In this document: one piece after another, positions 27,080 through 31,822 of the stretch
How the letters are laid out: every line of letters begins with the position of its first letter
Numbering within the stretch: position 1 is the first letter of the stretch
Source: a virus
Reading direction: 5' to 3' (one strand)
DNA length: 31,822 nt
Virus genome (UHGV): UHGV-0094578
Program-made: the position numbers and the translations under genes
Notes under the pieces: model-generated
Seen by the model: the letters and a program-made list of their open reading frames with translations, nothing else
Database searches by the model: none
Told to the model about the DNA's origin: nothing

Positions 27080-27089
27080 GCAGTATTTC
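27080..27089. other. candidate attR core (GCAGTATTTC)
   Basis: Direct repeat of 41-50, 47 bp after the last tail gene, overlapping the 3' end of the flanking acetyltransferase gene. Confidence 0.3.
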
Positions 27090-27684
27090 ACTTGTTGTGT
27101 AGTTCAGAATAGTTAGAGGTGGAGTGCGTATCAAGCGGTAGTAGTTGTGCGGCTCTGCGGGTTATAAAGACACTATTGGCAGGAATGTTTCGGTTAACGA
27201 ATGACATAGCACCAATTGTCACGTTATCACCTATGGTCAGATCATCACCGATGATGCATGAATTTGCACCAATCTCGACATTGTCTCCGATCCTGATGGC
27301 TTTGATTCCTTCAACTGTTTTTAATCCAATGGTTGTGTTTTGTCGGATACGAACATTTTTGCCAATCACAGCCTGGGGACAAATGACTATTCCAACGAAA
27401 TGATAAATTTTGAATTTTTCCCCGATCTGAGCCCCCAATCCAATATCAGTATTGTATTTTGAAACAAGTCTCCGGTGGATTCTTCGTGCCCACTTAATAC
27501 TTGATTTCCCTCCCTGACAGTAAAGGCAATTCGCTATCCTCCACCAACACATGAATCTGTGTCCGGGTTGTCTCCAGCAACGTAGTATGATTCTCCTCCA
27601 GGAGAATTTTTTACTACTGTGCAGTATGTCCGCGCACAACAACTTCTTCATATCCTCATAATGAGACTTTTTGTTGTTACTCAT
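27088..27684 (-). CDS. hexapeptide-repeat acetyltransferase (serine O-acetyltransferase / WcaB-like fold)
   Basis: 198 aa; left-handed beta-helix repeats (IGDNVEIGANSCIIGDDLTIGDNVTIG); AGGGAG Shine-Dalgarno; AT-rich. Confidence 0.8.
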   Translation of the reverse strand: MSNNKKSHYEDMKKLLCADILHSSKKFSWRRIILRCWRQPGHRFMCWWRIANCLYCQGGKSSIKWARRIHRRLVSKYNTDIGLGAQIGEKFKIYHFVGIVICPQAVIGKNVRIRQNTTIGLKTVEGIKAIRIGDNVEIGANSCIIGDDLTIGDNVTIGAMSFVNRNIPANSVFITRRAAQLLPLDTHSTSNYSELHNK

Positions 27685-28356
27685 AAATTATTCTCCCTAG
27701 TAATCCTGAGGATTATCGTAGCATGAGAATGATCTGATTTTCTGCCTATAATATTAAGTTATGTGGTCGGAACTGATAATTGGCTACTTAATCCCAAATA
27801 ATTAGTTGAATTACTAACAAAACATCTTTCTTATCTTGTCATAGACGTCGTCTGACGGTTTATTAACCCTTTAATAACAAACCTAACTTGGTCACTAAGT
27901 ATAAAAGATCAGAATTGTAGCGTTGTGCCGGTATGGTGATATGGCGACAAAATAAATCCTTCGCAGACAAAAACGGCACTACACCGCACCCGCCTGCGGT
28001 TTCTGGTTCTGGAAAATTTTTCAGTTTTATTTTTGTACAAATTAGACCGTCAGACTGCACCATTGCTGGCGGTTTTGTGGAGAACAGAAACTGAAATGAT
28101 TGAAAGGAGTTTCATTTTTTTTCAGTAAAAGGATCTGTGAATGTTTGTTGATGATAGGTAACTGACAGAAAATCAAAGAGAAAGTGAAAATTAAGTGAGA
28201 TGTAAAGATCTAAATGTTTCGTGTGCGATTAGAAACGAAACTCCAGTGACATTAGGTGTGACATGGATAGCGCTATTGACTTTGGATGATCAGAGATTGA
28301 AAAACTTACATGTAGATTGATGTTGGGGTACTCTAAAGAAAATTCATTTTTGTACG

Positions 28357-28956
28357 GTGGTAATCGTGAGTTGGGTGGATGTCCTTTCTTTTTTTGAAAA
28401 AATTTTACCTGCATTTGTTGGGTTTGTTGGCGCTTGGGCTGGTAGTCGGTGGGGGGTGACAAAATTTAAACGAGAAAAATACTGGGACGCAAAGGTCAAA
28501 GCATACGAAACCGCATTAAACCATTTTGAACAAATTGCCTTTTGGGGACGCTGTAATTATGCGCAGACTTATTGTGCCGTTACCGTTGGTGATCCTAGTC
28601 TTCACATAAATACTTTTCATGAGTCAATGCGAAATTTGGCTCAATTAGAAATTACAGCTTTTGTCTATTTTGATAGTAAATTTATTGGGTTGATTAAAGA
28701 GTTCAGACATAAGATTGAAAGTATCTATGTTAATGATTTAGATGATTTGAAAGGGGAGGATAGTCACGTTCAGTATGACGGATACGCTAGAATTCAATAT
28801 GAAATAGGAAATGTTGCCTATGATGCTTTAAATTATTTGAATAAACAGGCCTATCAGGATATTGGAGGAAAATCTCAGTGGTATGGGCAGTTATGGGAAC
28901 TGATAAAGAAAAAAGTGAAAAAGGATTGGGAAAACTATAGGGAAAATATTAAATAA
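28357..28956 (+). CDS. hypothetical membrane-anchored protein (199 aa)
   Basis: N-terminal hydrophobic helix (ILPAFVGFVGAWAG) then a soluble Lys/Glu-rich domain. Start uncertain (GTG at 28357 or 28366; no ATG for about 90 codons). Confidence 0.5.
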   Translation: MVIVSWVDVLSFFEKILPAFVGFVGAWAGSRWGVTKFKREKYWDAKVKAYETALNHFEQIAFWGRCNYAQTYCAVTVGDPSLHINTFHESMRNLAQLEITAFVYFDSKFIGLIKEFRHKIESIYVNDLDDLKGEDSHVQYDGYARIQYEIGNVAYDALNYLNKQAYQDIGGKSQWYGQLWELIKKKVKKDWENYRENIK

Positions 28957-29254
28957 GCTGGTAAATGAGTGGTGATATTTATCATTGAATAAAATTACGT
29001 TATTTCAAATAACTAATTGTATTAATTACTAAATGCCTTTAAAAATATTGGGTTTTGTTTGCATTTGGTGCGGTTATAGTGGAAATGCAAACCATCATAT
29101 AAAGCCCGCGTAACCGAACGGGCTGTTCTACGTTTTTTTAATGAAATTATGTTATTGCTTCAGCTTCCTTGTGATTAGAAGGGATCAAAGACCACATTTC
29201 CTCATGATCCGACTGTGACCGTTTGGAAGTATACACCGGCGTGAACTTGTTTTT

Positions 29255-29708
29255 CTAAATAGTATTGCAGGGGATATTCTGAAGCACCAATGAATGCGCA
29301 CCTATGGATACATTGTCGCCTATCGTAATCTTACCGCCGAGAATGGAAGAGTTGTATCCAATATCTATATGATCACCGATGATAATTATCGGATCGTAGC
29401 TATCAGTGCGTAGACCTATTGTGATGCCTTGCTTCAGGTTCGTGAAATCATCAATCACACAATTGTCCGTAATCACAATACCGTTCAGATGAGCAATGTT
29501 TAAACTCTTGCCGATTTTGCAGGATACTTACACCGGTGCATGAGGCAGTTTTCAATTCTGCGGGCAATGCGCTTTTTGAGCTTACTATTTTGGTCATAGT
29601 GTCATGACGCAATATGCCACCGGAACAAGAAGTGCCTCTTCTGGTTGTGTCGGGTTCGAAGTAACGCTTTATGCCATGAAAAGGCTTTGTCATGGTCATT
29701 GACTTCAA
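29255..29708 (-). pseudogene. degraded paralogue of the hexapeptide acetyltransferase (frameshifted, C-terminally truncated)
   Basis: Track ORF 29255..29476 (...GITIGLRTDSYDPIIIIGDHIDIGYNSSILGGKITIGDNVSIGAHSLVLQNIP) aligns by eye with residues of the intact enzyme at 27088..27684. The upstream part (29451..29708) is in another frame. Confidence 0.55.
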
Positions 29709-30139
29709 GGCGGATGCTTTCTTTAAGATGGTCGTAGGAAGTCATGTAGCTATCTTGACTAAAATGCCAAAAAAGGGGCTATAAATTAGTATATGAAAAT
29801 TGTTCATTCATCGAATCTTGATGACCTACTAACAGTACCTGATTGTTAATGTTGAAGCATGGAATGTGACCCTGAGCAGGCGGTGTTACGATTTCTAAAG
29901 AAGGAATTATAATAGTATGATTTTTAATCAAAACCTAGAGCGTTTATGTGGGGCGAACAACAAACAAGCGATACTTAGCTAATAGTTTCATAATCAATTA
30001 TGTTGCAAAAATCAGAGGCATATCGCGTTAAGCCGAAGAATTGCCTTGCGAAAGGGATTTGACACTGGACATAACTAACCTATTGAAATTAATATTATTC
30101 ACTATGCGTTATTTTACTAAATAAATCAGGTGCATTCAT

Positions 30140-31171
30140 ATGTCAAAACGAATTGTATTCTTCAATCATAAAGGTGGTGTAAGTAAAACAACATCAGTTT
30201 ACAATCTTGGATGGATGCTAGCTAACCAGCATAGAGTCTTGGTTGTAGACGGCGACCCTCAATGTAATCTTTCAAGCTTAATTTTAGGGGATGGTTTCGA
30301 AGAATATTATACGAATCCATTAACCCAAAAGCAGAACTTGAAGGATGGCGTTGCAGTCGCTTTCAAAGGTAAACCACAACCAATAACACCTATTACTTGT
30401 GTATCACCTGATAGAACTGCTAATCTTTTTTTATTGCCTGGGCATGCAGATCTTTCTGCTTATGAAGCATCATTAACTTTTGCACAAACATCAGGAAATG
30501 CTTTAGCAACCTTACAAAACCTACCGGGAGCATTTTCGGAATTAATAAGGCTATGTGAAGAACGCTATAATATCGATTATACGCTTATTGATTTAAACCC
30601 GGGGTTAAGTTCAATCAATCAGAACCTTTTCTTAAGTGCAGATGCTTTCATCATACCAACAAATCCAGATCCATTTTCAATCATGGCTATTGATACATTA
30701 AAAGATGTCTTGCCACGATGGATGGAATGGAAACAAAATAATCTTGATTTTTTTGAAGACAGTGCATATCCACTGAGAAACTCGCAAACAAAATTTTTAG
30801 GTATGCTGATCCAGCGATTTAATATAAGGAAGGGAAGAGCGGCAAGACCGTATCGAGATAACATCGCGGAAATCAAGCGTAAGGTCGTCGAAGATCTTGT
30901 TCCTCGTTTGCAGACTGTAGGAATGGCATTAAATTTGAATCAATATCCTCAAGAATTGCTTGATAATAACTTTTGCTTGTCGGAGATACCTGATTTTCAG
31001 GGACTTTTACCAAAGTCTTATGCGGCTGAAGTGCCTGTTTTTGCCCTTCGTGATGAAGATATTAATGAGACCGGGCCAGTTTTTGAACAGATGGCTGCAA
31101 AAAGAGATATGTTTAAAGCTCAATTTGAAGAATTATCTGAAATAATACTTAGGACTCTTGAAAATGTCTAG
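30140..31171 (+). CDS. ParA/MinD-fold P-loop ATPase with C-terminal extension
   Basis: Deviant Walker A NHKGGVSKTT, Walker A' VLVVDGDPQCN, Walker B-like YTLIDLNPG; 343 aa; AT-rich. Confidence 0.8.
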   Translation: MSKRIVFFNHKGGVSKTTSVYNLGWMLANQHRVLVVDGDPQCNLSSLILGDGFEEYYTNPLTQKQNLKDGVAVAFKGKPQPITPITCVSPDRTANLFLLPGHADLSAYEASLTFAQTSGNALATLQNLPGAFSELIRLCEERYNIDYTLIDLNPGLSSINQNLFLSADAFIIPTNPDPFSIMAIDTLKDVLPRWMEWKQNNLDFFEDSAYPLRNSQTKFLGMLIQRFNIRKGRAARPYRDNIAEIKRKVVEDLVPRLQTVGMALNLNQYPQELLDNNFCLSEIPDFQGLLPKSYAAEVPVFALRDEDINETGPVFEQMAAKRDMFKAQFEELSEIILRTLENV

Positions 31172-31772
31172 AGCTCATATAATTTTCAAAAAAAATATTG
31201 AGGAGGCGAAGCAGCTAAACGCATTACATACATATTTGTCTAATAACATACAAGTGCCTATGTCACATGATGATATTCTGCGCGCGCAATTAGTTAACTG
31301 TGTAAGCGCTTTTGATAAACTCATTCATGATTTAATACTTGATGGATTGACAGATATGTATGTAGGTAAGAGACAGCAAACTCCTAAATTTTTAGGTGAA
31401 GTGTTGCCGTTAAATGTGTATTTTAAATTACAAAATGCAACTATGCCGCCACCGGAGTATCATTTTCGTGAAGCGATGCGAGCAAAACTTAAAACAATTT
31501 CTTATCAGGAACCTTCGAAAGTCGCTGAAGGCTTGGCTTATATATGGGATGAGGGGCAGAAATGGGTAAAAATAGCTCAAGTAATGGGTTCTAAAGATGA
31601 TTTAGTAAAAAAACAACTTAAACTTATAGCAGTAAGGCGAAATGCAATTGTGCATGAGGCTGATTTAGACCCTGTAACTCATCAAAAACTTAGTATTGAC
31701 TCAAGAATGGTTACTGATAGTTCAAATTTCTTGGAACAATGCGGCGATGCAATAGAAAGTTTGGTATCTTAA
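31164..31772 (+). CDS. hypothetical protein with HEPN-like R-x4-H motif (putative RNase effector)
   Basis: ATG 31164 overlaps the ParA-like stop (31169-31171) with AGGA Shine-Dalgarno; motif RNAIVH at residues 161-166 of the track ORF (DNA 31638-31655). Confidence 0.5.
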   Translation: MSRAHIIFKKNIEEAKQLNALHTYLSNNIQVPMSHDDILRAQLVNCVSAFDKLIHDLILDGLTDMYVGKRQQTPKFLGEVLPLNVYFKLQNATMPPPEYHFREAMRAKLKTISYQEPSKVAEGLAYIWDEGQKWVKIAQVMGSKDDLVKKQLKLIAVRRNAIVHEADLDPVTHQKLSIDSRMVTDSSNFLEQCGDAIESLVS

Positions 31773-31786
31773 CAACTTGAAATCTC

Positions 31787-31818
31787 GTGTGAGGCTGCAT
31801 AAAAATGCAGCCTCACAC
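31787..31818. terminator. strong hairpin downstream of the two-gene module
   Basis: GTGTGAGGCTGCAT / ATGCAGCCTCACAC 14-bp perfect stem with AAAA loop, 15 bp after the stop; no U-tract visible before the window ends. Confidence 0.35.
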
Positions 31819-31822
31819 AAAT

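Follow-up and report, generated by a model that had tools for sequence, protein, structure and literature searches.

Of the described systems that resemble the pair of genes considered here, RemAIN is the one similar in overall composition, and it is reportedly due to Sargen & Helaine 2024, Cell Host Microbe 32:2063. The pair consists of a gene for a ParA-type ATPase (gene 1, 30140–31171) followed by a gene for a HEPN-fold protein (gene 2, 31164–31772), and it lies near the right-hand end of a stretch of 31,822 nucleotides, UHGV virus genome UHGV-0094578, called the window below; coordinates refer to it unless another record is named. PMC13043305 describes RemAIN as a validated and named anti-phage system of prophage Gifsy-1 in Salmonella Typhimurium 14028 (STM14_3218-3220), made up of the ATPase RemA, the immunity protein RemI and the HEPN nuclease RemN, which has anticodon-nuclease activity. 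The ATPase is ParA-like, there is no ParB, and the three genes are 840, 309 and 663 bp in length (PMC9879122). According to PMC12724215 and PMC12626290, the system stops co-resident prophages as well as incoming phages, and PMC12409363 likewise covers it as blocking phages and rival prophages.

A dyad of a ParA/Soj-like ATPase and a HEPN protein was described by Anantharaman, Makarova, Burroughs, Koonin and Aravind in 2013, as a predicted toxin-antitoxin system with the ATPase as antitoxin (PMC3710099). Its architecture is that of the present pair, a SIMIBI/ParA-type ATPase gene adjoining a solo HEPN gene with an Rx4-6H motif, and the prediction was purely computational. The family assignments differ, in that the 2013 dyad was placed in the 'MAE_18760' HEPN family whereas Pfam puts gene 2 in RiboL-PSP-HEPN, which PMC3710099 lists apart, as fused to L-PSP and in an operon with ParB. 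For the ATPase there is a single-protein precedent in GiPD474, a ParA/MinD-like (AAA_31) protein of 361 amino acids from Gifsy-1 of Salmonella Typhimurium 4/74, which lowers the plating of several tailed phages in Salmonella and E. coli (Bosma et al. 2025, PMC12724215). Like gene 1, it is a prophage-encoded ParA/MinD-fold ATPase with extra sequence past the core; unlike gene 1, it acts alone, with no HEPN partner, and adjoins CI/Cro/CII regulators. Its Walker A motif is GGVGKT at residues 29–34, against GGVSKT at 12–17 in gene 1, and the likeness of the two proteins is known at the level of the shared family. Two further prophage proteins, HepS of Gifsy-1 and Tha of S. aureus phage 80-alpha, are abortive-infection RNases of the HEPN type that act by themselves: they are self-sufficient sensors of phage tail proteins and have no ATPase partner, and their HEPN families differ from that of gene 2.

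The present pair is like RemAIN in being prophage-encoded, in occupying a strain-variable accessory region, in having the ParA-like ATPase gene first and the HEPN nuclease gene last, and in the size of the HEPN protein (220 amino acids in RemN, 202 in gene 2). It is unlike RemAIN in its position, at the attR end of a P2-like prophage rather than in a lambdoid immunity region, and in its range, since the nucleotide sequence of RemAIN occurs only in a minority of Salmonella genomes (Kurasz et al.) whereas the present pair is found across many phyla. No Salmonella match to gene 2 was obtained by tblastn against phage records (E ≤ 10), and a RemAIN-like arrangement of an ATPase with proteins of about 100 and about 220 amino acids is absent among the best 80 IMG/VR relatives of gene 1. 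An earlier note on this DNA, made from its letters alone, had taken the pairing to be undescribed and unnamed. This can no longer be maintained in view of the 2013 dyad, RemAIN and GiPD474: the architecture is not new in kind, having been predicted in 2013, and the compositionally similar RemAIN was named and validated in 2024. The pair is best described as an immunity-gene-less, very widespread candidate variant of ATPase-controlled HEPN RNase modules. It probably represents a self-contained, mobile two-gene conflict module, carried by a P2/186-like prophage as cargo of benefit to the lysogen and acting through RemAIN-like abortive infection.

The gene pair and its products

Both genes lie on the plus strand. 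Gene 1 runs from an ATG at 30140 to a TAG at 31169–31171 and encodes a ParA/MinD-fold ATPase of 343 amino acids with internal insertions, while gene 2 (31164–31772) encodes a stand-alone HEPN-fold protein of 202 amino acids, a putative RNase effector. Homologues start at the position of the ATG at 31164, which is therefore preferred as the start of gene 2 to a TTG further 5', at 31158. Gene 1 and gene 2 share 8 nt (ATGTCTAG, 31164–31171, plus strand), and the placing of the gene 2 start inside the gene 1 stop points to translational coupling. A perfect 14-bp hairpin with a 4-nt loop stands 15 nt past the stop of gene 2 (31787–31818, plus strand). Its arms (31787–31800 and 31805–31818) are 100% complementary and its folding z-score is −9.4, but a terminator scan does not call it because no U-tract follows. 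What the earlier note had stated about the co-oriented genes, their 8-nt overlap and the hairpin holds. A promoter-like site, TGGACA-18-TAATAT, is found 45–75 nt 5' of gene 1 (30066–30095, plus strand); it is of consensus level only and is regarded as a mere candidate, because such sites are no commoner in this region than in shuffled sequence. The DNA holding the pair has a G+C content of 37%, and the fraction drops from about 0.52 over the body of the prophage to 0.35–0.41 past position 27000, in agreement with the earlier description of the DNA as AT-rich. No RNA family was matched in 26800–31822.

The model of gene 2 is an all-alpha HEPN fold with a four-helix up-down core and a predicted local distance difference test score (pLDDT) of 94.1. 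In Pfam, gene 2 matches PF18735 (HEPN_RiboL-PSP) with 37.4 bits against a cut-off of 28.4, residues 12–200 covering positions 4–188 of the 191 in the profile, and the same family is carried by all 120 gene 2 homologues listed. As the score is modest, gene 2 is best seen as a divergent branch. The profile searches and structure prediction that the earlier note had proposed for both proteins thus return a HEPN fold for gene 2 and an AAA_31/ParA fold for gene 1. The catalytic motif RRNAIVHEAD (R158 R159 N160 ... H164 E165 D167) is encoded at 31635–31664 (plus strand). Residues R158, R159, N160, I162, H164, E165 and D167 are invariant in 28 homologues with 42–81% identity, forming a block RRNxIxHExD, and so is an N-terminal cluster, S48-D51-K52-H55-D56. 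Numbered from the ATG at 31164, R159-NAIV-H164 has the Rx4-6H form of the HEPN superfamily. The RNAIVH motif that the earlier note had singled out is therefore real and is part of the larger invariant block, but its residue numbers, R161 and H166, were counted from the TTG and become R159 and H164 when counted from the ATG. With these residues in place, gene 2 looks catalytically competent and is a predicted RNase. A profile search of 1.84 billion cluster representatives gives 1383 relatives at E ≤ 1e-3, 743 at 1e-10 and 240 at 1e-30, nearly all of them stand-alone proteins of about 200 amino acids. Escherichia marmotae has an annotated protein with 100% identity to the gene 2 product of the window.

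Gene 1 displays a deviant Walker A motif with the signature lysine, NHKGGVSKTT (residues 9–18; 30164–30193, plus strand), which is invariant among 28 close homologues. The Walker A' motif VDGDPQCN (VDxDPQCN in the family) and the Walker B motif LIDLNPG (core IDLNPG, extended to YTLIDLNPG in gene 1) are invariant or nearly so among homologues. NHKGGVSKTT, DGDPQ and YTLIDLNPG had all been read correctly from the letters. Pfam gives matches to AAA_31 (1.5e-25) and CbiA (4.4e-13), and gene 1 has the three-dimensional fold of ParA/MinD. The best PDB match of the family profile is an uncharacterised structural-genomics protein of 361 amino acids, 3pg5 (DIP2308; 2.6e-29). The earlier remark that gene 1 exceeds typical partition ATPases by about 80 residues is correct as to length; the extra residues sit in internal insertions, at about residues 50–95 and 195–285, rather than in a terminal domain, and the C-terminal EIPDFQGLLPKS..VPVF looks like the usual ParA C-terminal element. 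An invariant cysteine, C42 (30263–30265), lies in the switch motif DPQCNL, where canonical ParA proteins have DPQGN in place of DPQCN, and C87 and C279 are also conserved. A basic loop, QRFNIRKGRAARPYRDNI (residues 225–241; 30812–30862), is strongly conserved and is modelled with low confidence (pLDDT <50 at 230–233). The three cysteines and this loop are candidate interaction or regulatory sites.

The true ParA fold of gene 1 and its intact deviant Walker A motif with the signature lysine, both shared with ParABS (type I partition), would suit a role in DNA partition or positioning, in which the ATPase segregates the element or a cellular cargo and the HEPN-fold protein is a non-catalytic adaptor replacing ParB. 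Some relatives of gene 1 on viral contigs adjoin ordinary phage genes and could be partition ATPases. Unlike ParABS, however, the locus has neither ParB nor parS. No parB was found in 27000–31822 and no tandem repeats or repeat array either, no repeat family in this region having more than two short copies outside the acetyltransferase genes, which bears out the earlier statement that a parB-like partner and centromere-like repeats are lacking. The carrier is a chromosomally integrated prophage, and the partner of the ATPase has an invariant catalytic Rx4H motif, for which a protein serving purely as an adaptor would have no need. The NCBIfam partition, MinD and BcsQ models all score far under their curated cut-offs for gene 1 (ParA_partition 49.6 against 180, SopA 16.6 against 725), and the NCBIfam search as a whole gave no match over a cut-off. 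A partition locus was rejected on the grounds of the missing ParB and repeats, the integrated carrier and the catalytic HEPN partner, and a function of this kind is very improbable.

There is a paralogous clade of long ParA-like proteins, 33–34% identical to gene 1 over its full length and with the same FFNHKGGVSKTT motif, that has no HEPN partner. Members lie directly 3' of a CI-type repressor gene in the P22-like phages ST160 and SE1 and in about 20 IMG/VR prophage contigs, past CI in the position that rexAB has in lambda. In Salmonella phage ST160 (NC_014900, 11482–13035) a DUF3024 gene stands between CI and the ATPase, and it matches the PADLOC candidate PDC-S43 (2e-41).

Conservation and carriers of the pair

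The gene 2 alignment was run against one genome per species (100,044 species), which gave 332 relatives, and the best 80 loci were kept. These come from at least nine phyla, including Proteobacteria, Cyanobacteria, Bacteroidota, Firmicutes, Spirochaetes, Acidobacteria, Chloroflexota and Actinomycetota, among others. In 79 of the 80 the HEPN gene is directly preceded by a co-oriented homologue of gene 1, and the lone exception ends at a contig edge. The survey of conservation suggested in the earlier note thus finds the pair kept as such, and not as a conserved partition locus. On IMG/VR viral contigs the ATPase is upstream of the HEPN relative in 17 of 18 cases. Approached from the side of the ATPase, 23 of the best 80 viral-contig relatives of gene 1 have a member of the HEPN family immediately 3', down to an ATPase identity of 35%. 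The junctions are tight: among 71 intact pairs 58 overlap, 29 of these by the same 8-nt ATGnnTAR, and the rest are no more than 11 nt apart. The identities of ATPase and HEPN protein to those of the window co-vary across pairs (r = 0.81). When up to three neighbours per side were clustered for the 80 loci (426 proteins), no conserved third gene was found.

Some upstream genes recur within clades. A putative endonuclease of the Uma2 family (PD-(D/E)xK) lies immediately 5' of the pair, on the same strand and at a distance of 45–75 nt, in several cyanobacterial and methanotroph genomes, and a YhcG PDDEXK nuclease is immediately upstream of the pair in one genome. The position of the Uma2 genes could be due to chance in genomes rich in Uma2, or these genes could be a third component confined to certain clades. 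As a third component of the module at large, the clade-specific upstream genes (Uma2 or YhcG nucleases, DUF4112, a methyltransferase) were rejected, none of them being general.

The order of the genes, with the regulator first and the toxin last, and their translational coupling are typical of toxin-antitoxin systems, and the 2013 prediction covers exactly this architecture (PMC3710099). The HEPN RNase would then be constitutively active as a toxin, with the ParA-like ATPase serving as antitoxin either by binding it or by phosphorylation (Anantharaman et al. 2013), and the pair would mainly stabilise the prophage, plasmid or islet that carries it rather than act against phages. The occurrence of the pair as a solitary two-gene insertion in varied contexts, conjugative plasmids included, fits such an addiction function. 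Two loci fit it badly. In Rhodomicrobium sp. (locus L031, 4189–5826) the ATPase is frameshifted after about residue 272, and in Pandoraea capi (locus L051, 6977–8612) its Walker A (NYTAGISITS) and Walker B (LINVPAG) are degenerate; in both the RRNAIxHE motif of the HEPN protein is intact, which is not expected if an ATP-dependent antitoxin is essential. With two cases this is a weak hint that the RNase is not constitutively lethal, and it leans slightly towards a triggered effector over a constitutive toxin. Post-segregational killing would, moreover, bring little to an integrated prophage. Classical addiction is plausible but on balance unlikely, though it is the strongest of the competing explanations, and it overlaps with the preferred reading of an abortive-infection module because many toxin-antitoxin systems act as abortive-infection systems. 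The type VII HEPN-MNT toxin-antitoxin systems (SO_3166/SO_3165, Legionella HEPN-MNT) differ in that their regulator is a minimal nucleotidyltransferase that AMPylates the toxin, whereas here it is a ParA-fold ATPase; Pfam shows no nucleotidyltransferase (NTP_transf) family at the gene pair, and gene 2 is about 70 residues longer than HEPN-MNT toxins.

The pair is horizontally mobile, being carried by P2-like prophages, filamentous Pf phages and plasmids. In Pantoea ananatis it is found (81% and 91% identity) past gpU-gpD-ogr of a different P2-like prophage. It is present in the Pseudomonas filamentous prophage Pf5 (AY324828; P. aeruginosa PA14) and in phage WX-TY (PV296014). In the Pf5 record (L004, 2977–4528) it has the Pf core genes on one side and, on the other, the att site that closes the record, and the ATPase open reading frame (ORF) has the full 343 amino acids, where the record annotates a shorter Orf317. 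The pair corresponds to the Pf5-specific genes PA14_49010-49030 and, in Pf5 and WX-TY alike, takes up the slot that in Pf4 is filled by genes for a reverse transcriptase and an ATPase (PA0715, PA0716) (PMC3820363). Thirteen Burkholderia plasmids carry it, most of them typed as conjugative, including conjugative plasmids of B. glumae. On the prophage contig IMGVR_UViG_640753022_000005 (L114, 2106–6672) a divergent ParA-HEPN pair (36% and 29% identity) comes directly after ShosTA, at a distance of no more than about 620 nt; ShosA and ShosT are identified by PADLOC at about 2e-92 each, so that two conflict modules adjoin at the end of this prophage. Another enterobacterial copy of the pair is a bare two-gene islet among chromosomal genes.

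Carriage by temperate and filamentous phages, together with the position of the paralogous ParA-like clade directly 3' of the CI repressor gene in P22-like and other lambdoid prophages, would also suit a regulator serving the prophage itself, one that controls the life cycle of its carrier or competes with co-resident prophages (for example by a lytic block after SOS induction, as in RemAIN) and is not directed mainly against lytic phages. Most of the 80 genomic copies, however, have no recognisable phage genes as immediate neighbours, which makes such a role improbable; it would in any case differ from an abortive-infection module in its biological target and not in its mechanism.

Proposed mechanism and its weighing

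As an abortive-infection module, the pair could work as follows. The ATPase would be made first and, through translational coupling, in a fixed ratio with the HEPN protein. It would bind the HEPN protein, and an ATP-dependent dimer switch would keep the RNase off in healthy cells. Infection by a phage would flip the switch, and the RNase would be released or activated. The HEPN protein would be a metal-independent RNase, most likely directed at tRNA anticodon loops or mRNA, as are RemN, HepS, PrrC and RnlA. The outcome would be an arrest of translation and abortive infection, on the same logic as in RemAIN though with no immunity protein as a separate component. By analogy with HepS and Tha, the HEPN protein may itself share in the sensing. 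A stronger proposal treats the ParA-HEPN dyad as a two-component immune system in its own right, found in many phyla and needing no immunity protein, in which a ParA-type ATP switch directly couples an infection signal to activation of a HEPN tRNA or mRNA nuclease; it is put forward tentatively, as possible but short of probable. Nucleoid DNA and partner peptides are what ParA proteins ordinarily read; the present ATPase is better conserved than its effector and has the invariant cysteine of DPQCNL and the conserved basic loop. ParA-fold ATPases would on that proposal form a general class of immune regulators, to which the pair, RemA and GiPD474 would belong.

Several observations weigh against a RemAIN-like abortive-infection module. 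In 70 of the 71 intact pairs the HEPN protein is the less conserved of the two (mean identity to the proteins of the window 41%, against 56% for the ATPase), a pattern unusual for an ATPase that acts as a fast-evolving sensor of phages. The higher conservation suggests that the ATPase contacts a conserved partner (DNA, the nucleoid or a host factor) and not a variable phage protein. The genomic neighbours of the 80 loci, as seen in a Pfam and PADLOC scan of 130 of them, are heterogeneous. Housekeeping genes make up most of them, and the others include genes for Uma2 nucleases, transposases and methyltransferases, one Cas7d and a small number of PADLOC candidates; because most are ordinary and few are defence or mobile genes, enrichment in defence islands is not demonstrated. 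In Pf5 of PA14 the HEPN ORF is unannotated and truncated to 175 amino acids, with loss of the last helix, while the WX-TY version has the full 202. Set against RemAIN itself, the locus has no counterpart of the 102-residue RemI between the genes, which overlap by 8 nt and have no conserved third gene, and gene 1 with its insertions has 343 amino acids against 279 in RemA; the likeness to RemAIN is drawn from published descriptions of the system. The defence-database search proposed in the earlier note gave nothing for the pair: PADLOC-DB 2.0.0 (2023) holds no model for it, gene 2 has no match there at E ≤ 1, and gene 1 matches only residues 3–39 (the P-loop) of PDC-M28B. Likewise, a search of the literature turned up no experimental study of the two-gene ParA-HEPN family. 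Owing to these last two points the pair stays a candidate defence module. The earlier suggestion of a candidate defence or abortive-infection module keeps its support in the coupling of the genes, in their non-partition character and in a favourable context, and has to give up the claims that the module is undescribed and that it sits in flanking chromosomal DNA.

If the pair protects against phages, the catalogue of known defences would gain a compact and very widespread member. Its study would further illustrate how an RNase can be placed under a ParA-type ATP switch, a mechanism that does not appear settled for RemAIN and GiPD474. The pair is present in P2-like prophages and in Pf phages of P. 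aeruginosa (among them Pf5 of the model strain PA14), and it is directly testable, in Pf phages too.

The prophage and its cargo slot

The window represents a P2/186/HP1-like prophage, with an integrase (50–1090), a CI repressor, gpA, baseplate J and HP1 ORF34, and this prophage is inserted between mntS and mntR of Escherichia marmotae. Upstream of the integrase are mntS and genes of the sulfatase, OmpX-type (Ail/Lom family), EamA and ferritin/Dps families, and downstream of the window are mntR, ybiR, ldtB and ybiT. The att core is an 11-bp direct repeat, GCTATATTATA, found 48 bp to the left of the window start and again at the window-equivalent position 31971 (attR), where homology to the E. 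coli chromosome resumes; no further copy occurs within the window. Since these repeats flank the window, the gene pair is inside the att-bounded element, as AT-rich attR-proximal cargo, and not beside the prophage as the earlier note had placed it.

The AT-rich variable cargo region extends from the last tail/baseplate gene (ending at 27033) to attR; it covers 27034–31822 of the window, with attR just past the window end. Its first gene encodes an intact hexapeptide-repeat acetyltransferase of 198 amino acids (27088–27684, minus strand). Sibling prophages are present in 50 complete E. coli genomes, and the three inspected are all at the same site, directly upstream of mntR. Their homology to the window stops at the last tail gene, and the cargo beyond it differs. 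EH09-18-41 has a serine acetyltransferase gene only, MFDS1019527 an acetyltransferase and an ABC ATPase of 524 amino acids that matches PADLOC HEC-04 (3e-33) and ATPase-Toprim models, and MFDS1016424 a protein of 411 amino acids with no Pfam or PADLOC family. None of 5,426 complete E. coli genomes contains the DNA of the gene pair. In the window an acetyltransferase pseudogene, broken into short ORFs (29197–29761, minus strand) and 81% identical to the serine O-acetyltransferase gene of MFDS1019527, lies 5' of the pair, which places the pair in the same acetyltransferase-to-attR slot as the HEC-04-like ATPase. The cargo slot of the prophages at this site between mntS and mntR resembles a hotspot of defence genes on a small scale, in effect a small natural 'swap site', and the two copies of the acetyltransferase suggest that cassettes are exchanged by recombination between prophage cargo regions.

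Two further features of the cargo region lie between the intact acetyltransferase gene and the pseudogene. An ORF of 199 amino acids with a hydrophobic N-terminus (28357–28956, plus strand), also called as a gene in identical contigs, has no match in Pfam or PADLOC; like the 411-residue protein of MFDS1016424, it is a further candidate among cargo proteins without known families. A segment of about 240 bp (27945–28183) has no match to any Rfam family and is 84–90% conserved in the cargo of all three inspected sibling prophages despite the differing genes around it, and it could be a regulatory or recombination site.

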